From Spirochaetes bacterium ADurb.Bin133 (GTDB lineage: Bacteria > Spirochaetota > GWE2-31-10 > MWDO01), in assembly GCA_002070605.1 (NCBI GenBank), contig MWDO01000004.1, forward strand, positions 8,184 through 72,183: a stretch of DNA of 64,000 bases. The letters are read 5' to 3'. Of this stretch, positions 4,829 through 39,732 are shown in pieces. Numbering within the stretch: the first letter of the stretch is position 1; every line of letters starts with the position of its first letter. The notes under the pieces are model-generated. The model made no database searches and had not been told where the DNA came from. It saw nothing but the letters and a program-made list of their open reading frames with translations. The translations under genes were made by a program, and so were the position numbers.

Positions 4829-4970
4829 GCCCGTCGGTCTTTTGGGGTGGGGAAAATAAATTCGACACATATGCGTCGCTGTGTTTCATCTTATAGTTTG
4901 ACGCATATGTGTCAATTTGAAGGAACTGTCTCAAGAGTTCTCATTCCTCCCTAAAAAACCGGCGAGGGTA
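4829..4970. repeat. Copy of the MITE-like palindrome-bearing intergenic element
   Basis: Left end GCCCGTCGGTCTTTTGGGG, units TTCGACACATATGCGTCG and TTTGACGCATATGTGTCAA, right end CCCTAAAAAACCGGCGAGGG. Confidence 0.6.
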
Positions 4971-6834: not shown

Positions 6835-7905
6835 ATGAAAGATAAAATATTGATGAAAGGTAACGAAGCGTTAGCTGAGGCGGCGATAAGAGGGGGATGC
6901 AGATACTATTTCGGTTACCCTATTACCCCTCAGAACGAGGTTCCGGCGTATATGTCGAAGCGGCTTCCCGAAGTCGGCGGGGTATTTATTCAGGCTGAGA
7001 GCGAAACGGCTTCAATTAATATGGTTTACGGGGCGTGCGCTTCCGGAGCCAGGGCTATGACGTCGTCGTCTTCCCCGGGTATATCATTAATGCAGGAGGG
7101 AATTTCGTATATCGCCGGTTCGGAAGTTCCCGCGGTTATTATAAACGTTATGAGGGGAGGTCCCGGTCTTGGAAATATATCCCCTTCGCAGGCGGATTAT
7201 TTGCAATCGGTAAAGGGGGGCGGTCACGGCGATTACAATGTAATAATATTTGCGCCGTCGACGGTTCAGGAGCTTGCGGATTATGCTTACGATTCGTTCG
7301 ACGTTGCGTTCAAATACAGGAATCCCGTTATGATTTTGGCGGACGGCGTATTGGGACAGATATCCGAAGGGGTAATTCTTCCGGAATTTAAAGAGATAAA
7401 AGACGCGCCGGAGTGGGCTTTGGGCAAAGGAAAGGAGAGAAATATTATCAGGTCGCTTTTTTTGAATCCTGAAGATAGATTGACAACGCACAATATACAT
7501 CTGCAAGAGAAGTACAGGCGGATTGAAAAAGAGATTCAATATTTTGAAGAGTACAAATGCGAAGACGCCGAATATCTGATCGTCGCTTATGGAACTACTT
7601 CCAGAATTTGCAAATCGGCGATTGATAATATGAGAAATAACGGAATTAAGATCGGACTTTTCAGACCCATCTCGTTATGGCCGTTTCCTTACGCAAAGCT
7701 TAAAGAAAACGCCGCGTCTAAAGAGACTCTGTTTGTCGTAGAGATGGCTTACAATCAGCTGGAGCAAGACGTTCGGATTGGCGTTGAGGGCGCCGCTCCC
7801 ATAGAAAGGCTAAACAAACTGGGCGGTTCGGTATTTAACGAAGAGGAGATAATTGATTTTATTTCAAATTCTATAACTTTAAAGGGAAATAAGTATGTCG
7901 GATAA
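6835..7905 (+). CDS. korA: 2-oxoacid (probably 2-oxoglutarate):ferredoxin oxidoreductase alpha subunit
   Basis: The N-terminus KGNEALAEAAIRGGCRYYFGYPITPQNEV is the typical KorA/PorA motif. Confidence 0.9.
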   Translation: MKDKILMKGNEALAEAAIRGGCRYYFGYPITPQNEVPAYMSKRLPEVGGVFIQAESETASINMVYGACASGARAMTSSSSPGISLMQEGISYIAGSEVPAVIINVMRGGPGLGNISPSQADYLQSVKGGGHGDYNVIIFAPSTVQELADYAYDSFDVAFKYRNPVMILADGVLGQISEGVILPEFKEIKDAPEWALGKGKERNIIRSLFLNPEDRLTTHNIHLQEKYRRIEKEIQYFEEYKCEDAEYLIVAYGTTSRICKSAIDNMRNNGIKIGLFRPISLWPFPYAKLKENAASKETLFVVEMAYNQLEQDVRIGVEGAAPIERLNKLGGSVFNEEEIIDFISNSITLKGNKYVG

Positions 7906-8647
7906 AAAATATTTATATAAAAAGACCGCCGTTTTGACAGACAAATCGTCTCATTATTGTCCGGGGTGTTCGCACGGCTTGGTTCATAAAATGCTTGCGG
8001 AGATTATTGAGGAGTTTGGTATTCAAAAAAAGACGATTTTTGTCGCTCCGGTAGGTTGCGCCGTGCTGTTGTACGATTATATAGATTGCGATACGTTGGA
8101 GGCGGCGCATGGCAGAGCTCCGGCGTCTGCGACGGGGATAAAAAGAAGCAATCCGGATAATGTCGTAATCGCTTATCAGGGGGACGGCGATCTTTTGGCT
8201 ATCGGAATGGCCGAAACCATACATGCCGCTAACAGAGGCGAGAATATTACGGTAATATTTATAAATAACGCTATATACGGGATGACCGGCGGGCAGATGG
8301 CTCCGACGACTCTGGTAGGGCAAAAAACTTTAACTACGCCTCTTGGGAGGAATCCGTCAAACGAAGGTTATCCTATAGGCGCTTGCGAATTGTTAAATAC
8401 TCTGACGGCTCCGTATTTTATAGAGAGATGTAAGGTAAACAGTTCGAAAACCGCCATATATACGAAGAAAGTTTTAAAAAAAGCCATAACAAATCAGATG
8501 AATAATAAAGGGTATTCGTTTGTGGAAATTTTGTCGAATTGCAATACTAATTGGGGCATGACTCCGTTAGACGCGAATAAATGGATAGACGAAAACGTTG
8601 AGAAGATATTTCCCGTTAAGAATTTCAGAGACGGCGACGCAAAATAA
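7895..8647 (+). CDS. korB: 2-oxoacid:ferredoxin oxidoreductase beta subunit (TPP-binding)
   Basis: CPGCSHG motif and a TPP-binding GDG region (YQGDGDLLAIG). Its start overlaps the korA stop. Confidence 0.9.
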   Translation: MSDKKYLYKKTAVLTDKSSHYCPGCSHGLVHKMLAEIIEEFGIQKKTIFVAPVGCAVLLYDYIDCDTLEAAHGRAPASATGIKRSNPDNVVIAYQGDGDLLAIGMAETIHAANRGENITVIFINNAIYGMTGGQMAPTTLVGQKTLTTPLGRNPSNEGYPIGACELLNTLTAPYFIERCKVNSSKTAIYTKKVLKKAITNQMNNKGYSFVEILSNCNTNWGMTPLDANKWIDENVEKIFPVKNFRDGDAK

Positions 8648-8664
8648 TAATTATCAGAGGAGCA

Positions 8665-9204
8665 TTGATGTTAAATAAAATAGTACTAGCCGGATTTGGC
8701 GGTCAAGGCATTATTGTTGCCGGCAAACTTTTGGCTATATCTGCGATGAATGAAAAAAAGGAGACGACGCATTATCCTTCGTATGGAGCGGAGATGAGAG
8801 GCGGGACTTGCTCTTGCTCCGTAGTAGTTGGAGACAATCTTATTGCGTCTCCTATCATAAAAAATCCAGATATTGCCTTGATATTTAATAAACCGTCTAA
8901 AGAAAAATACGAACCTCTTATGAGACATGGCGGAATCATGATTTTAAATAAATCTTTAATTGAAGATACAAATTTGAGAGGAGATATAAAAAAATATTTG
9001 ATCAAAGCGTCCGAAATTGCCGAACAACTTGGAAGCGTTAAATCGACAAATATGGTCATGCTTGGGGCTTTTGTCAAGGCTACTTCGATAATCAAACTTG
9101 ACGCTATTATTAATTCATTGACCATAGCTTTTCCAAACGCTAAAGAGAAGGCTATAGAGTTAAATATTAGAGCTCTTGAAGCGGGATATAATAATTTGGA
9201 GTGA
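8665..9204 (+). CDS. korC: 2-oxoacid:ferredoxin oxidoreductase gamma subunit
   Basis: AGFGGQGIIVAGKLLA is the gamma-subunit motif. Confidence 0.85.
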   Translation: MMLNKIVLAGFGGQGIIVAGKLLAISAMNEKKETTHYPSYGAEMRGGTCSCSVVVGDNLIASPIIKNPDIALIFNKPSKEKYEPLMRHGGIMILNKSLIEDTNLRGDIKKYLIKASEIAEQLGSVKSTNMVMLGAFVKATSIIKLDAIINSLTIAFPNAKEKAIELNIRALEAGYNNLE

Positions 9205-9208
9205 GAAA

Positions 9209-11155
9209 ATGGGAAAATCAGTTGCGCAAAAAATCTTAGAAATTCATATAGTCGAAGGGGAGTATAAATACGGCTCTGAAATAGGAATCAAAATCGATCA
9301 AACCTTGACTCAAGACGCTACGGGAACTCTCGCATATCTTCAATTTGAGGCGATGAACGTTCCAAAAGTACAGACTGAAATATCGGTAAGTTACGTCGAC
9401 CACAACACTTTACAGACGGATAATAGGAATATGGACGATCATCTTTATCTTCAATCGGTAGCTTCCAAATACGGCATATACTATTCGAGACCCGGCAACG
9501 GAATTTGTCATCAAGTACATCTTGAAAGATTTGCCAGACCCGGTTATACTCTTTTAGGATCCGACTCGCATACTCCGACTTCGGGGGGGATCGGAATGAT
9601 AGCGATCGGCTCCGGCGGACTAGACGTAGCTTGCGCTATGGCGGGCGAGCCGTTTTTCTTGAAAGTTCCAAAAGTTATTAATATAAAATTAACGGGCAAA
9701 CTCAAACCGTGGGCGTCGGCAAAAGATATAATTTTACGCATATTAAAGATCAAAAGCGTAAAAGGCGGCGTCGGCGCTATAATAGAATATTCGGGCGACG
9801 GGCTTAAAAATCTATCCGTTCCTGAAAGAGCCGTTATTACTAATATGGGCGCCGAACTCGGGGCTACGACTTCAATTTTTCCCTCCGACGAGATAACGCT
9901 GGATTTTATGAAAAGACAGGGAAGAGAACATCAATTTGTAGAGATAAAAGCGGACGAAGACGCGATATACGACGAAACGATAGAAATCGACTTATCCTCT
10001 ATCGTAACTTACGCGGCGGCTCCACACTCGCCCGATAACGTAAAAAAAATCTCGGATTTAAGCGCTGTCAAAGTAAATCAGGTTTCGATAGGAAGTTGCA
10101 CAAATTCAAGTTATAGAGACTTATGGATCGTCGGAAAAATCCTCGAAGGGAAAGTTATAGCAAAAAACGTCTCTCTGACTATATCCCCCGGATCAAAACA
10201 GGTTTTTTCTATGATATCGAGAGACGGAACGCTAACTAGACTAATAGACGCCGGAGCGAGAATATTGGAATGCGCTTGCGGACCCTGCATAGGAATGGGT
10301 CAATCTCCAAACAGCGCCGGAGTATCTCTTAGGACTTTCAACAGGAATTTTGAAGGACGAAGCGGAACTAAAGACGCCGAAATATATCTCGTCAGTCCCG
10401 AAGTAGCGGCGATATCGGCTCTTAACGGGTTCATATCGGATCCGATGGAACATCTGGGAATTATGCCGGAATTTAAGTTCCCCGACGAATTTGTTATCGA
10501 CGACAGGTTTATTATACCGCCCGCTATCGAGCCGGACAAAGTCCAAATTATCCGGGGACCGGGTATCAAACCGCTTCCCGAACAGAAACCCTTGCCGGAT
10601 TCGATCGAGGCAAAAGTTATAATAAAAGTCGGGGACAATATTACGACGGATCATATACTTCCGGCCGGAGCAAAAGTATTGCCGTATAGGTCTGATATAC
10701 CAAAAATAAGCGAGTTCGCATTCGGCTCTATAGACCCCGAATTTTACAAAAAAGCGTTGAAAGAAAAAACGGGCGTCATAGTCGGGGGTGAAAATTACGG
10801 TCAAGGTTCGTCGAGAGAGCACGCCGCTCTTGCGCCCAAATACCTCGGCATAGCCGTCGTAATTGCGAAATCCTTTGCCAGAATTCATAAAGCGAATTTG
10901 ATCAACTTCGGCATAGTTCCTATGACTTTTGAAAACCCTGGCGACTACGACTCGATCAAAGAGACCGACCTTGTAAAGATATCTTCAATCAAAAGCGATA
11001 TTCAAGGGTCTAAGAAATGCGAAGCGTATATAAACGATAAGAAAATTATTTTAAACGTCGATCTTTCAGAAAGAGATATACAAATACTCCTGGACGGCGG
11101 AACGCTTGCGAATATAAAAAATAAATTTAGCAAAATAAAGATAGTCGAAGGATAA
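9209..11155 (+). CDS. Aconitate hydratase of the short (~650 aa) type, aconitase/IPM-isomerase family
   Basis: Aconitase-family motifs GSDSHT, GSCTNSS and ACGPC(I)GMGQ, plus a swivel-domain SSREHAA. ATG at 9209 is chosen over the in-frame TTG at 9176 because it follows the korC stop at 9204. Confidence 0.85.
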   Translation: MGKSVAQKILEIHIVEGEYKYGSEIGIKIDQTLTQDATGTLAYLQFEAMNVPKVQTEISVSYVDHNTLQTDNRNMDDHLYLQSVASKYGIYYSRPGNGICHQVHLERFARPGYTLLGSDSHTPTSGGIGMIAIGSGGLDVACAMAGEPFFLKVPKVINIKLTGKLKPWASAKDIILRILKIKSVKGGVGAIIEYSGDGLKNLSVPERAVITNMGAELGATTSIFPSDEITLDFMKRQGREHQFVEIKADEDAIYDETIEIDLSSIVTYAAAPHSPDNVKKISDLSAVKVNQVSIGSCTNSSYRDLWIVGKILEGKVIAKNVSLTISPGSKQVFSMISRDGTLTRLIDAGARILECACGPCIGMGQSPNSAGVSLRTFNRNFEGRSGTKDAEIYLVSPEVAAISALNGFISDPMEHLGIMPEFKFPDEFVIDDRFIIPPAIEPDKVQIIRGPGIKPLPEQKPLPDSIEAKVIIKVGDNITTDHILPAGAKVLPYRSDIPKISEFAFGSIDPEFYKKALKEKTGVIVGGENYGQGSSREHAALAPKYLGIAVVIAKSFARIHKANLINFGIVPMTFENPGDYDSIKETDLVKISSIKSDIQGSKKCEAYINDKKIILNVDLSERDIQILLDGGTLANIKNKFSKIKIVEG

Positions 11156-16271: not shown

Positions 16272-16434
16272 GCGCGCCCCGTCGGTTTTTTGGGGGATAA
16301 AAAATAATTTGCTAGTTAAAAATATTTGTTTCATATGTGTCAATTTTAATAGGCGCCTCAATCCGACGCATATGTGTCAATTTATCCTTAGCTCCATATG
16401 TGTCAATTTTTCTCCCGCCCCAAAAAACCGACGG
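16272..16434. mobile_element. Complete MITE-like element with terminal inverted repeats and three CATATGTGTCAA units
   Basis: Left end GCGCGCCCCGTCGGTTTTTTGGGGG and right end CCCGCCCCAAAAAACCGACGG are inverted repeats of each other. The conserved internal block GATAAAAAATAATTTGCTAGTTAAAAATATTTGTTTCATATGTGTCAATTTT is present. Confidence 0.65.
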
Positions 16435-16447
16435 AGTATAAAATTTG

Positions 16448-17352: not shown

Positions 17353-18072
17353 TTATAGCAAATCCGCTTCCAGTAAAGCTCTAAAAAAAGTAACGGCTCT
17401 GATTTTAGTAAATCCCGCCTCTTTTAATAATCGCGCGCCGTAATTAATTGTCGAACCGGTCGTAAAAATATCGTCGATGAGATATATTTCTCCGGAGTAT
17501 CTATTTTTATTTTCGGATGGGAGGTAGAATAAACTCTGTATTTCGTCCTCTCGTTTAAGTTTGTTTTTCATTTTTTGAGGAGTAAATTTAAAATTCTTTT
17601 TATAAATATCTTTATATACTATGAACTTCTCTTTTTTCAGCAGGCGCAAAAGGTAATATAGACTGCTTCTGCCTTTTTTAAACCGCTTAAATTTGGTATC
17701 CGGGACTATAGTTATAGGGATATTCTTATTTAAAATTCCTTTATATTTTAATAATTCAAAAAATAATTTTATAATCGTAAACTGTCCGTTAAGTTTTAAT
17801 TTTTTAAGCGCCGTCTGTAAAAAACCGCTATAATATTGGACAAATTGGTATGAATCAAAAAAAATCGGTCTCTCTTTGTTGCAAGACGGGCATCCCTCGT
17901 TTTTTAAAGGATGCCCGCAAATTTGACAAATATTATCAAAGGTAGTATTAAACGAATTAAAACACTTATTACAAATTAACCCGATTTTCTCGGATAAGTC
18001 TTTACTATCGCAAAGTATGCACCTTGAATCTAAAAAAATTTCTTTAATTCGCTTTAAATTACCCAAAAGCAT
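17353..18072 (-). CDS. ComF-family protein (phosphoribosyltransferase domain with N-terminal Cys4 zinc finger)
   Basis: CxxC pairs (CILCDS..CNKC..CQICGH..CPSC) and a C-terminal PRTase motif YLIDDIFTTGSTI. Confidence 0.6.
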   Translation of the reverse strand: MLLGNLKRIKEIFLDSRCILCDSKDLSEKIGLICNKCFNSFNTTFDNICQICGHPLKNEGCPSCNKERPIFFDSYQFVQYYSGFLQTALKKLKLNGQFTIIKLFFELLKYKGILNKNIPITIVPDTKFKRFKKGRSSLYYLLRLLKKEKFIVYKDIYKKNFKFTPQKMKNKLKREDEIQSLFYLPSENKNRYSGEIYLIDDIFTTGSTINYGARLLKEAGFTKIRAVTFFRALLEADLL

Positions 18073-18075
18073 AAA

Positions 18076-19545
18076 TTATACGGAAGTATTAATTAAACTC
18101 TCAATGTTAAAAACTTCATTTTTTCTTGACGGAGTATTCTTTTTAGCTTCTTTATTAAAAAAATTTATCCCGCTTTTTTCTAAAAAATTGAAAAAGTCTT
18201 CTTTGTTTTCATCGGGAATAATATAAACTTCGTCTTTTATTAATTCGTAAGCGGTTATTACGTCTTTTTCAATTAAATTTTTTATTAGTTTGCCTTTTTC
18301 CGCGCCGTTGCAAAAGAAGAGCGTTCCGGTTGAATAAAAATAGGAGCCGTATTTATCAAACCACTGCTTTATTGTCGTTTCAACGTTCTTTGGCAGATCT
18401 ATGCCGTTATTTTCAAAAAAATTCTGAAAATTATCGTAATTATATCCGGCGACTACGCTTCTTTTTATAGAGAGTTCGGAAATCTCAAATTCTACAAGTT
18501 TATTGTAGTTTAACATATCTCCAAAAAGCGCTATCTCATAATAATCTTTTTGCGTTGAATTTGCATTAACAAAAAAGGTAAAATTAGTCGAAATTGTTAT
18601 TCCGTTTCCGACCTCCTCGTCGTTTTTATAATAACAAATTATAAGAATTCTACCGTCGTCAAGCGTTCTTATCATACCGATTTTTTCCAGAAAAGATAAA
18701 ACTTCGTCGAAATCTTTTTTAATGGGGGGATAGGTATAGGTTTGGTTCATTAACGTAAGTTCCCATAATTTTTTTAAATCTTCTCTTTTAAAAGCGACAG
18801 ACTGTTTGTTTTTGTAATAAAACTTCAGAATAGAATAAAAATTTGGAAACGTTATTTCGACAAAATAGAGAATCCTTTCAAACATATTTTTTGAAAAAAA
18901 TATTTCGACCTTATTCAAAGAAATATTAAACTGTTCGTCGCAAAAAGCGTTGGAGAAAAAATAACTAATTGCGTTTAAATCGTCGTAATCAAAATTTGAG
19001 TAATTTGCAAATATCTGGTCTGAAGATATATTATCCTTTTTATATAAAGAGTATGAGTTTGAGAATTTAAATTCTTTTGTAATAAAATAAAGAATTATAT
19101 TATTAATGTCCGTAATCGATTTTGAACTGTAGATTTCGCCGGATATATCGACAATTTCATACGACGTAGAGTTGGCAACTTCATAGTATATTTGGGGTAT
19201 GATAATCAAATCTTCGCGTTGAAAAATGTAACTTTTCAATAAGAGATTAGATATGACTTTGTTGACTAAAAAAAGTTGCATATCAAGTATTATACTGATT
19301 TTTTCAATCAAGTAATGATTTGATAGCGCGTCAAAGTTTGTAATAAATTTTAATACTTTGAACTCGTCTCCGTTAAGTTTTTCAACAAACGAGCTGATAA
19401 CGTTCTCTTTTGACAAAACTGACAAAAGATTTTTACGATATGAGAAATCCTCTCTTTTCATCAATATCTTTCCAAGGAAAACCTCGTATAAACTTTTTAT
19501 CTCATCGTCGTTTAAATTATCAAGATTTATCAATTTTTCCGACAT
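18076..19545 (-). CDS. Hypothetical protein co-transcribed with the XPB-like helicase. Candidate XPB partner.
   Basis: 489 aa. Its start overlaps the helicase stop by 16 nt, and there is a 4-nt gap to the ComF-like gene. No motif recognised. Confidence 0.45.
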   Translation of the reverse strand: MSEKLINLDNLNDDEIKSLYEVFLGKILMKREDFSYRKNLLSVLSKENVISSFVEKLNGDEFKVLKFITNFDALSNHYLIEKISIILDMQLFLVNKVISNLLLKSYIFQREDLIIIPQIYYEVANSTSYEIVDISGEIYSSKSITDINNIILYFITKEFKFSNSYSLYKKDNISSDQIFANYSNFDYDDLNAISYFFSNAFCDEQFNISLNKVEIFFSKNMFERILYFVEITFPNFYSILKFYYKNKQSVAFKREDLKKLWELTLMNQTYTYPPIKKDFDEVLSFLEKIGMIRTLDDGRILIICYYKNDEEVGNGITISTNFTFFVNANSTQKDYYEIALFGDMLNYNKLVEFEISELSIKRSVVAGYNYDNFQNFFENNGIDLPKNVETTIKQWFDKYGSYFYSTGTLFFCNGAEKGKLIKNLIEKDVITAYELIKDEVYIIPDENKEDFFNFLEKSGINFFNKEAKKNTPSRKNEVFNIESLINTSV

Positions 19546-21230
19546 ATTAATTCCTCCTTTTTCCAGTAATCAATTTCATAACTATAACCTTGTTCGGTTA
19601 AAAATCTTTGTCTGTTATGAGCGTATTGTTCTTCTATAGAATCTTGAGTCGTCAACGTATAAAAGTAGGAGTTATTGTTTTTTTTGGGACGCAATATTCT
19701 CCCTAATCTTTGGGCTTCCTCCTGTCTGGAGCCGTACGTTCCGCTTAATTGTATAAGAACCGCCGCGTCCGGTAAGTCTATAGAAAAATTGGCTACTTTG
19801 CTGACGACTAAAATTCTTAATTCGCCCGCTCTGAATCTCCTATATAAATCTTCTCTTTTAAGATTTGGCGTTTTGCCGATTATAAGCGGCGCTTTAATAA
19901 TTTTAGCGACTAATTCTAATTGATCTATAAATTGCCCGATTACTAATATTAAAGAATTTCTATGTCTTAATAAAATATCGGATAAAACGTCGATTTTTAA
20001 CGGATTGGTGGCGGCTATAGCAAATTTAGCTTTTTGATCGGCGGCAAGATAATCCATAACAAGATCTTCCTGTAACGGAAGTTTTATTTCATAACATTTA
20101 GCTTCCGCTATCCACCCCTGCTTTTCCAGAACTTTCCACGGAGTATCGTATTTCTTAGGACCTATTAGGCAGAAAACGTCTTTTTCATGTCCGTCTTCCC
20201 TGATTAAAGTTGCGGTAAGTCCCAGTCTTCTAACGCTTTGTAACTCCGAGGTTATCTTAAAAATAGGGGCGGGCAAGAGATGCGCTTCGTCGTAAATAAT
20301 CAATCCCCACTCTTGAGACAGAAATATCCCAAAATGAGGGAAATCGCTCTCTTTTGTTTTTCTGTATATTAAAATTTGATACGTGCAAACCGTTATAGGT
20401 TTTATCTCTTTTTTATCTCCGGTATATTCTCCGATCATATCCGGAGAAATATCTGTTTTATCAAGAATTTCCCTTATCCATTGATGAACCGCCGCTACGC
20501 TGGTAGTAAGAATAAGAGCGTATCCCTTTACTTTTGTTATAACGTCTATACCGATTATTGTTTTACCCGAACCGCAGGGTAAAACAATAGTTCCATGACC
20601 GCCGAAGTTTGATCCCGCCTGATAAAAGGCTTCCGACGCCATCGTCTGATAATCTCTGAGTTTAAACGGTACCCGCGCGCTTGTTTCGGTTTTCAAATTA
20701 ATATCGAGGAATTTTGATTTTGCATATCCCGCAATGTCGTTTACAGGTATATTAAAATTAAAAAAATCGACTTTTAGTTCGCCCCTCAATAGCAACGGGA
20801 TCAAATAACGCTGCTCCGATATCTTATGCGTCACATATTTTTTTAATTTTGGAATAGATAAAATCTCTATTTCCAGATTTTTTTCCTTTATGAATAGTAT
20901 CAATTTTGTATTGTCGGCTTCGTATTTTAATATTTCGACTACCCCAAATCTACCGAAAATTGCTCTGATCTCCTCAAGAACGTTGTTGGGGACGTCAAAT
21001 TTAGAATAATTAATAAGACTATCCGTTATATATTTAACGTCTAAACCCATCGCCGCCGCATTCCAAAGGCTAAGAGTTGAAATTTTGTAAGTATGTATGT
21101 GTTCGGGCGATTTGACCAATTCTGCAAATTTGGTTAATTCGTTTCTGACGATCTCAAATTTATCGTTATGAACTTCTAAAAGCAGTGAGAAATCGCTCTG
21201 AACAATTAAAGGATTGCTGGTATCCGGCAC
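19530..21230 (-). CDS. XPB/ERCC3/Rad25-family SF2 DNA helicase
   Basis: Motif I LPCGSGKT, motif II DEAH, motif III LGLTATL followed by the XPB-specific RED motif (TATLIREDG), and motif VI QEEAQRLGRILR. Has an N-terminal XPB-type domain. Confidence 0.8.
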   Translation of the reverse strand: MPDTSNPLIVQSDFSLLLEVHNDKFEIVRNELTKFAELVKSPEHIHTYKISTLSLWNAAAMGLDVKYITDSLINYSKFDVPNNVLEEIRAIFGRFGVVEILKYEADNTKLILFIKEKNLEIEILSIPKLKKYVTHKISEQRYLIPLLLRGELKVDFFNFNIPVNDIAGYAKSKFLDINLKTETSARVPFKLRDYQTMASEAFYQAGSNFGGHGTIVLPCGSGKTIIGIDVITKVKGYALILTTSVAAVHQWIREILDKTDISPDMIGEYTGDKKEIKPITVCTYQILIYRKTKESDFPHFGIFLSQEWGLIIYDEAHLLPAPIFKITSELQSVRRLGLTATLIREDGHEKDVFCLIGPKKYDTPWKVLEKQGWIAEAKCYEIKLPLQEDLVMDYLAADQKAKFAIAATNPLKIDVLSDILLRHRNSLILVIGQFIDQLELVAKIIKAPLIIGKTPNLKREDLYRRFRAGELRILVVSKVANFSIDLPDAAVLIQLSGTYGSRQEEAQRLGRILRPKKNNNSYFYTLTTQDSIEEQYAHNRQRFLTEQGYSYEIDYWKKEELICRKN

Positions 21231-21310
21231 AATTCCTCCAAATCGGATTCTTCATGGGAAGGAAATTATATACCATTTTTAACTTAATTGCAAGATAATT
21301 CTTTACAAAT

Positions 21311-21392
21311 GGCGCCCCGTCGGTTATTTGGGGATTGAGAAATATTTGTTCCATATGCGTCAAATTTCTCTTCCCTAAAAAACCGCCGGGGT
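21311..21392. mobile_element. Short MITE-like element with inverted-repeat ends and a single CCATATGCGTCAA unit
   Basis: GGCGCCCCGTCGGTTATTTGGGG ... CCCTAAAAAACCGCCGGGGT. Confidence 0.6.
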
Positions 21393-25085: not shown

Positions 25086-25547
25086 TTACTTTTCTCTAAG
25101 AGCGACGTTTATCTCAATTCGTCCCATCGGCGTTTCTATTGGAACTATAAGAGCTTCTATTTCAGAGTCGGATATTTCCATATTTTGACCTGAAAAAACC
25201 GCCGGAGGCGTTACGTCAAATTTATACCCCATTTCGGATAATTTTGTTACCGCTCTTCCGGTAATCATATTGCCAAGTTCCGTTATCGTAGCCTTTGCTA
25301 ATTCGTCGAATTCCGAAATTTTTTCGCCGTTCATATTGGAAGCTATCTTTAACGCCGTCTCTCTTTTCATATCAAAAAGGACTCGTCCTTCGACTTGACC
25401 TACAAGACCTACTATTACCGCAACGTCTAGAATAGGAACCGCTTTTGACTTTAAGGTTATCTGCTCTCTTTTTACCTCAACGCCGAGAGTCTCTCTTATA
25501 ACGCTAACGGACGATTCAACAAAAGGGTTAATATACTCCACTCTCAT
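25086..25547 (-). CDS. cheX: Chemotaxis protein CheX (CheC/CheX-family CheY-P phosphatase)
   Basis: 153 aa. N-terminus MRVEYINPFVESSVSVIRETLG resembles CheX. Immediately downstream of cheY. Confidence 0.7.
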   Translation of the reverse strand: MRVEYINPFVESSVSVIRETLGVEVKREQITLKSKAVPILDVAVIVGLVGQVEGRVLFDMKRETALKIASNMNGEKISEFDELAKATITELGNMITGRAVTKLSEMGYKFDVTPPAVFSGQNMEISDSEIEALIVPIETPMGRIEINVALREK

Positions 25548-34469: not shown

Positions 34470-34579
34470 CGGCGCCCGTCGGTTTTTTGGGAGAGGGGAA
34501 TTGACACATATGACGTTAAAGATAAAATTGACACATATGGAGCAAATATTGTTATCCCCCAAAAACCGACGGGGCGCCC
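34470..34579. mobile_element. Prototype ~110-bp MITE-like element with perfect terminal inverted repeats and two TTGACACATATG units
   Basis: CGGCGCCCGTCGGTTTTTTGGG ... CCCCCAAAAACCGACGGGGCGCC. The ends are reverse complements over about 20 bp. Confidence 0.7.
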
Positions 34580-39603: not shown

Positions 39604-39732
39604 GCCCGCCGGTTTTTTTGGGGGAGGAGAAATTGACGCATATGCGACGGCGTCGATAACGCGCGACAATTGTTGCATAAAAATTCGACGCATATGTGTC
39701 AATTGTTTTTTTATCCCCAAAAAACCGACGGC
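39604..39732. mobile_element. MITE-like element with inverted-repeat ends and two palindrome units
   Basis: GCCCGCCGGTTTTTTTGGGGG ... TCCCCAAAAAACCGACGGC, with TTGACGCATATGCGAC and TTCGACGCATATGTGTCAA inside. Confidence 0.65.

Follow-up and report, generated by a model that had tools for sequence, protein, structure and literature searches.

Between positions 17,353 and 21,230 of a 64,000-nucleotide (nt) stretch of Spirochaetes bacterium ADurb.Bin133 (contig MWDO01000004.1, positions 8,184–72,183; hereafter the window), three genes follow one another on the minus strand. They encode an XPB-type helicase, a protein of 489 amino acids (aa) and a ComF-like protein. An earlier note on this DNA had taken them for a three-gene operon and had proposed that the middle protein, in which it saw no recognisable motif, might be an analogue of Bax1, the partner of archaeal XPB. 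We focus on the helicase and this putative partner, whose features are given below together with the adjoining third gene.

19530..21230, minus strand: XPB (ERCC3/Rad25-type) superfamily 2 (SF2) helicase/translocase, 566 aa; GTG start with a GGAGG ribosome-binding site a few bases upstream
20820..21209, minus strand: XPB's N-terminal domain (NTD), aa 8–137; Pfam PF13625, 84.6 bits
20193..20201, minus strand: RED motif of XPB, R344-E345-D346, directly after motif III (TATLI); from alignment to the RED of Ssl2 and human XPB
19530..19545, minus strand: 16-nt overlap of the XPB stop region and the partner start, a candidate site of translational coupling; from the open reading frame (ORF) coordinates
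18076..19545, minus strand: p52/Tfb2-like partner, 489 aa; from the ORF list, an AlphaFold2 (AF2) model, Foldseek and a family profile
18331..18618, minus strand: clutch domain of the partner, XPB-NTD-like; from PF13625, the family profile against the Protein Data Bank (PDB) and hhalign
18166..18330, minus strand: predicted C-terminal beta-beta-alpha-beta-beta-alpha domain of the partner, ~aa 406–460, at the position of the p8/Tfb5-binding domain of p52/Tfb2; from predicted secondary structure
17353..18072, minus strand: ComF-family-like protein, 239 aa; DZR_2 and Pribosyltran domains; adjacent to the pair and outside the module

The 16-nt overlap of helicase and partner agrees with what had been described before. 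Partner and ComF-like gene lie 3 nt apart (18073–18075), one less than previously given.

The helicase is, by its sequence, a canonical bacterial XPB and an ordinary member of the curated family. The NCBIfam model NF045503 (repair_heli_XPB) matches aa 7–553 over model positions 1–547 with 778.8 bits (cut-off 610), and Pfam places ERCC3_RAD25_C, ResIII, Helicase_C, Helicase_C_3 and PF13625 in the protein. The SF2 core with its two RecA domains is thus in place, and the translation contains a Walker A motif (LPCGSGKT), a DEAH box (IYDEAHLL), TATLIRED and QRLGRILR. The earlier identification of a bona fide bacterial XPB carrying the RED motif holds because TATLIRED aligns residue for residue with TATLVRED of yeast Ssl2 and human XPB; R344, E345 and D346 are also invariant in an alignment of 12 bacterial XPBs. 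Against PDB sequences the core scores ~260 bits with human and yeast XPB and ~128 bits with archaeal XPB. Residues 4–101 align to the human XPB NTD (E 8e-9) and to residues 128–226 of yeast Ssl2. Hence, the domain that had been likened to the XPB damage-recognition domain is indeed of XPB type, but by these alignments it is the eukaryote-type NTD and not specifically the archaeal damage-recognition domain. In TFIIH, the XPB NTD is the domain that binds the clutch of p52 (PMC6422496). DNA-dependent ATPase and 3'–5' helicase/translocase activities have been shown for XPB of Mycobacterium tuberculosis (PMC3353954).

The partner does contain a recognisable domain, PF13625, at aa 318–405 (26.4 bits, E 7.5e-6, below the gathering score of 34.2), and the same family is precomputed for the partner's database cluster. 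A word index of 5.8 billion proteins holds 12 relatives of the partner, all from Spirochaetota metagenome bins, and one of these carries a precomputed match to Tfb2 (PF03849). A profile built from 11 family members was searched against 177,635 PDB sequences. Six matches were obtained at E <= 10, all of them p52/Tfb2 from yeast, human or Chaetomium and all on the clutch region (E 1.4e-3 to 1.6e-2), with profile positions 310–382 aligned to Tfb2 331–403 and human p52 303–370. The clutch and the XPB NTD share a stretch that is visible by eye (partner EISELSIKRSVVAGYNYDNFQNFFENNGIDLPKNVETTIKQW, XPB KISTLSLWNAAAMGLDVKYITDSLINYSKFDVPNNVLEEIRAI) and that has a counterpart in Tfb2. Profile–profile comparison by hhalign pairs partner residues 335–464 with XPB residues 29–165 (E 3e-4), which echoes the homology between XPB NTD and p52 clutch known from human TFIIH.

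The predicted structure extends this relationship beyond the clutch. An AF2 model of the partner, built on the partner-family alignment, has a predicted local distance difference test score (pLDDT) of 85.9 and a predicted template-modelling score (pTM) of 0.82. The best 18 Foldseek matches of this model in the PDB are all p52/Tfb2 (E 1e-8 to 1.7e-5), over alignments of 320–520 columns, most of them ~500 and so full length. XPB chains come next, matched through their NTD, and no others have E < 1e-3. The segment aa 296–489, modelled on its own, comes out poorer than the full-length model (pLDDT 67.6) and gives 19 p52 matches of ~155 columns spanning the clutch and the C-terminal domain. Its matches to 3dom_C (the Tfb5–Tfb2C complex) and 5of4_D have a TM-score (TMt) of 0.52 and E 0.25–0.38, so that the modelled C-terminal domain weakly resembles the Tfb2 C-terminal/Tfb5 fold. 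The predicted architecture of the partner is p52-like: a helical, winged-helix N-terminal two thirds, then the clutch, then a small C-terminal alpha/beta domain. Judged by profile and model together, the partner is a predicted homologue of the TFIIH subunit p52/Tfb2, with the same domain order and near-equal length.

The pairing of the two genes is conserved, in keeping with the proposal that the overlapping gene encodes a dedicated XPB partner. In six related spirochaete loci (compared as L081–L090; partners 38–90% identical to that of the window) XPB and partner are adjacent and overlap by 13–19 nt. We also fetched 80 XPB loci from species-representative genomes and iterated the partner with jackhmmer against their six-frame ORFs; iteration was required, the narrow partner profile alone finding partners in ~10 of the 80 loci. 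In 37 of the 80 the next gene after XPB, on the same strand and often overlapping it, is a p52-like ORF; in 2 more such an ORF lies directly upstream, and ~10 of the remaining loci end at contig boundaries. Overlaps or small gaps between the two genes are seen in many phyla besides the spirochaetes. Carriers of the adjacent pair include Spirochaetota, Chloroflexota, Planctomycetota, Gemmatimonadota, Latescibacterota, Sumerlaeota, Bacillota, Verrucomicrobiota and 'delta-proteobacterial' bins. Among 40 XPB-adjacent partners from other phyla, 39 contain PF13625 by Pfam and 7 have a sub-threshold Tfb2 match (best E 3.6e-6, model positions ~240–358 only), while a WYL domain is added in 2 and a SWIM domain in 1.

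The partner family is wider still. An HMMER search of 1.84 billion representative proteins returned ~20 close clusters of the compact, ~490-aa form and ~150 more distant partner-like proteins of 450–850 aa. All 20 distant relatives scanned with Pfam contain PF13625, starting mostly at residues 320–385. Database names for ten distant relatives are only 'hypothetical protein' or 'helicase-associated domain-containing protein'. RefSeq records give further arrangements. In Acaryochloris marina a 622-aa 'hypothetical protein' with PF13625 lies directly upstream of XPB, and in Tsukamurella a helicase-associated protein is encoded 3.5 kb upstream. In Deinococcus sp. QL22, XPB is followed by a 99-aa ORF and then by an 811-aa 'helicase-associated domain-containing protein'. 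The 99-aa ORF (L092:6753-7052) has no Pfam match and is a candidate p8/Tfb5-like small subunit.

Several XPB loci are organized differently. Five from Chloroflexota (L003, L046, L051, L058 and L066) have two tandem p52-like paralogues of ~640–820 aa each downstream of XPB; this arrangement is reminiscent of p52 and p8, which pair by way of related C-terminal domains, and hints that the two paralogues may form a heterodimer. Other large ORFs downstream of XPB, which we had suspected of being divergent partners, are instead DUF4015 hydrolases, AddB-like nucleases, a kinase and a histidine kinase. In three Hydrogenedentota loci a ~1050-aa AddB-like gene comes directly after XPB (L029:8668-11811, L032:3337-6513 and L061:8646-11861) and may represent an alternative, bacterial XPB–nuclease pairing. 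A short contig of 4954 bp (L079), binned to the metagenome-assembled genome of an archaeon, Candidatus Methanolliviera, carries an XPB of bacterial type that has 54% identity to the query alignment, through either a binning artefact or horizontal transfer.

Taken together, we consider it likely that XPB and its neighbour are the two subunits of a translocase, in which the p52-like protein is the regulatory or adaptor partner, and that the ComF-like gene is unrelated to it. It would mean that the XPB–p52 module of TFIIH exists in bacteria in a two-protein form. By analogy with TFIIH, translational coupling would have XPB and partner made in fixed proportion. The partner clutch and the XPB NTD would form a pseudo-symmetric dimer, as p52 clutch and XPB NTD do in TFIIH structures (PMC6422496), and the partner's C-terminal domain would contact, or help to cradle, the RecA2 domain of XPB. 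The partner would thereby anchor XPB and tune, probably stimulate, its DNA-dependent ATPase and translocase, and the winged-helix N-terminal region may supply DNA binding or recruitment. The conserved gene coupling gives indirect backing to the predicted binding of the XPB NTD and stimulation of the ATPase. Such a machine may repair bulky lesions or damage that blocks transcription, or serve some other task in which DNA is opened. Mutants of M. tuberculosis ercc3 are hypersusceptible to rifampicin (PMC10534295), a phenotype that is compatible with a transcription-linked role and proves nothing.

A number of observations weigh against this assignment. Global TM-scores of the partner to p52 are low (0.16–0.27), so that the full-length match rests on Foldseek's local scores; low global values are as expected for a flexible chain of several domains. 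The match of the C-terminal domain is weak because the fragment model is mediocre. The hhalign probability for partner against XPB is only 39%, the Pfam Tfb2 family (PF03849) has no match in the window partner and PF13625 stays under its gathering score; the partner lies below the Pfam Tfb2 sequence threshold and is for that reason not filed as a PF03849 member. At about half of the bacterial XPB loci in this survey no p52-like gene adjoins XPB, which implies that the partner is encoded elsewhere or is dispensable there, and at some loci its place is taken by an AddB-like helicase–nuclease (ADDB_N plus PD-(D/E)xK) or by unrelated genes. Finally, p34, p44 and p62, to which the p52 N terminus binds in TFIIH, have not been reported in bacteria, although no search for them was made here.

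Similarity of sequence confined to the clutch, the low global scores and the variable size of the bacterial relatives (430–940 aa, some with WYL or SWIM added) would also suit a partner that shares with p52 no more than generic winged-helix repeats and one XPB-NTD-like domain, acquired by convergence or shuffling, and that acts as an independent DNA-binding regulator. We regard this as unlikely, given that the partner follows p52 co-linearly in domain order and length over ~500 columns, that no other PDB family competes and that the strict coupling to the XPB gene matches the relationship of p52 to XPB. A Bax1-type or PD-(D/E)xK-type nuclease, making the pair a helicase–nuclease like archaeal XPB–Bax1, can draw on the archaeal precedent (PMC13024598) and on the AddB-like genes of Hydrogenedentota, by which bacterial nuclease partners do exist. 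The 489-aa protein nevertheless has no nuclease family match in Pfam, NCBIfam or PADLOC scans, and its invariant residues are mostly hydrophobic or aromatic, with no catalytic acidic motif standing out. Neither the full-length nor the fragment model finds a Bax1 or nuclease chain at E < 1e-3; the only nuclease-type Foldseek entries are LAGLIDADG meganucleases (E 0.27–0.46, probability 0.08–0.14). All Foldseek matches below that E value are p52/Tfb2 or XPB chains, and on the domain scans and fold searches the Bax1 analogy was rejected as extremely improbable.

The two remaining explanations concern the setting of the genes. A three-gene module of XPB, partner and ComF-like protein for DNA uptake or processing was suggested by the tight co-directional spacing in the window (16-nt overlap, 3-nt gap) and by the general link of ComF proteins to DNA uptake in competent bacteria. 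The minus-strand ORFs are real, but the three-gene operon does not persist as a conserved unit. The ComF-like gene is adjacent to the pair in none of the six related spirochaete loci, and phmmer found no ComF-like ORF in the 80 XPB loci from other bacteria. In the closest relative (L089/L090, partner 90% identical) two hydrolase genes, encoding a PGAP1/abhydrolase protein (273 aa) and a Peptidase_S9-like protein (338 aa), occupy ~2 kb between partner and ComF-like gene (7491–9452); both are missing at window positions 18073–18075. Past the ComF-like gene, this relative keeps the order of the window (a 261-aa protein, an acyltransferase, an ACT protein and an AMP-ligase). In L081–L088 the partner is followed by a PGAP1-type hydrolase, a DUF362 protein, a radical-SAM protein or a convergent GDE_C gene. 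On this synteny we rejected the conserved module with ComF, which is very unlikely. An anti-phage or anti-plasmid defence system, in place of housekeeping DNA metabolism, is improbable as well. It would accommodate the weak, partial similarity of XPB to PADLOC PbeA (63 bits, ~170 aa) and to Cas3/DinG-type helicase models, the presence of some XPB genes on megaplasmids (one adjoining transposase and integrase genes), the fast evolution of the partner (38–43% identity where XPB keeps 68–71%) and the WYL or SWIM domains of some partner relatives. Yet the partner has no match in PADLOC-DB v2 and the ComF-like protein gives phosphoribosyltransferase (PRT)-domain matches only; both this locus and those of relatives are flanked by housekeeping genes (NadR-like, DHH, acyltransferase, ACT, AMP-ligase) with no defence island; tblastn found no partner homologues on plasmids; and XPB is highly conserved across Spirochaetota, fitting vertical inheritance.

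Because hydrolase genes intervene in the closest relative, the tight spacing of partner and ComF-like gene in the window reflects a local indel. On comparison of these sequences, a clean ~2-kb indel creates the apparent three-gene operon, and the ComF-like gene is best described as an unrelated housekeeping gene and chance neighbour. Its product combines a double zinc ribbon with a type-I PRT domain that carries the phosphoribosyl pyrophosphate (PRPP)-loop motif IYLIDDIFTTGST (YLIDDIFTTGST). Pfam gives DZR_2 27.9 bits (cut-off 27) and Pribosyltran 26.2 bits (cut-off 26.3). The naming of the protein as ComF-like is therefore sound as regards architecture, but its scores are far below the curated cut-offs, at 56.7 bits against 233.55 for TIGR00201 and 52.7 bits against 304 for GntX (NF008616). 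The best sigma-70-like match in the region, TTGAGA-18-TATAAT (11/12 positions; 18075–18104, minus strand), lies inside the 3' end of the partner gene and directly upstream of the ComF-like start. It may be the promoter of that gene, if functional, or a chance match in AT-rich DNA.

Comparison with known systems places the pair closest to TFIIH, with its XPB–p52(–p8) subunits (human XPB/GTF2H4; yeast Ssl2/Tfb2/Tfb5). The helicase is orthologous in type, sharing the RED motif, the eukaryote-type NTD and the 260-bit score, and the partner is co-linear with p52 and of similar length (489 aa here against 462 and 513). The bacterial pair differs in being encoded by overlapping genes and in having a partner that lies below the Pfam Tfb2 threshold. 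Its XPB lacks the eukaryotic N- and C-terminal extensions, no separate p8/Tfb5-like gene has been identified for it, and p34, p44, p62, an XPD held in the complex and the CDK-activating kinase (CAK) are not reported in bacteria.

Bax1 is a nuclease that binds the thumb and helicase domain 2 (HD2) of XPB, whereas p52 binds the XPB NTD, a domain that archaeal XPB is not known to have. The pair resembles archaeal XPB–Bax1 in that a gene for an XPB-family helicase adjoins one for a dedicated partner. It differs in that the window partner has no nuclease fold or motif and resembles p52, and in that the window XPB is much closer to the eukaryotic (260 bits) than to the archaeal protein (128 bits). 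Among bacteria, the XPB of actinobacteria (M. tuberculosis Rv0861c/Ercc3) falls within the same equivalog family as the window XPB; Rv0862c, next to Rv0861c, is presumably a PF13625-bearing neighbour of the same kind. The bacterial PF13625 'helicase-associated domain-containing proteins' are likewise neighbours of XPB in the Deinococcus, Acaryochloris and Tsukamurella records. Most bacterial partners have 600–800 aa, with extra C-terminal sequence, in contrast to the compact, ~490-aa spirochaete form. The third gene product is like ComF, ComFC and GntX in its double zinc ribbon and type-I PRT domain with PRPP-binding motif, and unlike them in its distance from the curated cut-offs; in related genomes its gene is unlinked to XPB.

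The helicase was already known, and relatives of the partner are already labelled 'helicase-associated' through PF13625. What appears to be new is the stand-alone bacterial pair of XPB–p52 type. Human XPB is weak without p52 and p8, and if the bacterial partner is a p52-like subunit, earlier in vitro studies of the isolated helicase may have overlooked its activator. In the one detailed biochemical study, on M. tuberculosis XPB (Balasingham et al., 2012, PMC3353954), the helicase was examined by itself; p44 was reported as not found in bacteria, and homologues of p52 were stated not to exist there, a statement that the p52 link contradicts. The function of bacterial XPB has been called 'elusive' (PMC13024598). 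We found no description of a bacterial p52 homologue in the literature searched, in which coverage of subscription journals was incomplete, so that an earlier description is possible.

With the p52-like assignment, a simple bacterial system of two proteins becomes a model for the clutching and regulation of XPB by p52. A false lead is cleared away as well, since neither ComF and DNA uptake nor a Bax1-like nuclease plays a part at this locus. The insight applies to the whole family and is not peculiar to the window; it provides a hypothesis on bacterial XPB that can be tested directly. The pair also bears on the origin of the TFIIH translocase module, since in archaea XPB is joined by an unrelated nuclease. 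Tentatively, and with more doubt than confidence, it could be an ancient, widespread bacterial two-subunit translocase, the direct counterpart and possibly the source of the XPB–p52 'bottom lobe' of TFIIH. Such an origin would explain why eukaryotic XPB is more like bacterial XPB, with its NTD, than like archaeal XPB–Bax1. If it is true, the role of the complex could extend beyond repair to DNA opening or damage associated with transcription, and the rifampicin hypersusceptibility of M. tuberculosis ercc3 mutants would fit.

The surroundings of the three genes are ordinary. Upstream lie genes for NadR-like, DHH phosphoesterase and beta-lactamase-family proteins, and downstream those for a 262-aa membrane-anchored protein, an acyltransferase, an ACT protein and an AMP-ligase, all of them housekeeping in character. 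G+C content is somewhat lower over the partner and ComF-like genes (0.30–0.32) than in the flanks (~0.38). Two further features precede the XPB start.

21265..21293, minus strand: sigma-70-like match TTGCAA-17-TATAAT, 10/12 positions, ~35 nt upstream of the XPB start; a consensus match only
21311..21392, no strand assigned: copy of a dispersed palindromic intergenic repeat; hairpin fold of -33.8 kcal/mol, z -2.9

Sigma-70-like matches are common in such AT-rich DNA, the region containing 29 where 20.8 are expected. The repeat had been described as lying directly upstream of the operon. It is a real hairpin, but it belongs to a dispersed family that is not peculiar to the locus. The window contains 8 occurrences of its arm motif where 0.02 are expected, with full copies also at 16277–16436 and 34471–34578 and partial copies near 4859–4967, 25189–25207 and 39604–39704. 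An Rfam scan of the whole window gave no match, and the repeat is on that ground not a known RNA. It looks like a dispersed element resembling repetitive extragenic palindromes (REP) or miniature inverted-repeat transposable elements (MITE), and not an operon-specific signal. Its terminal inverted arms read roughly GGCGCCCCGTCGGTTTTTTGGGG / CCCCAAAAAACCGACGGGGCGCC, and an inner AATTGACGCATATG module is present in some copies.

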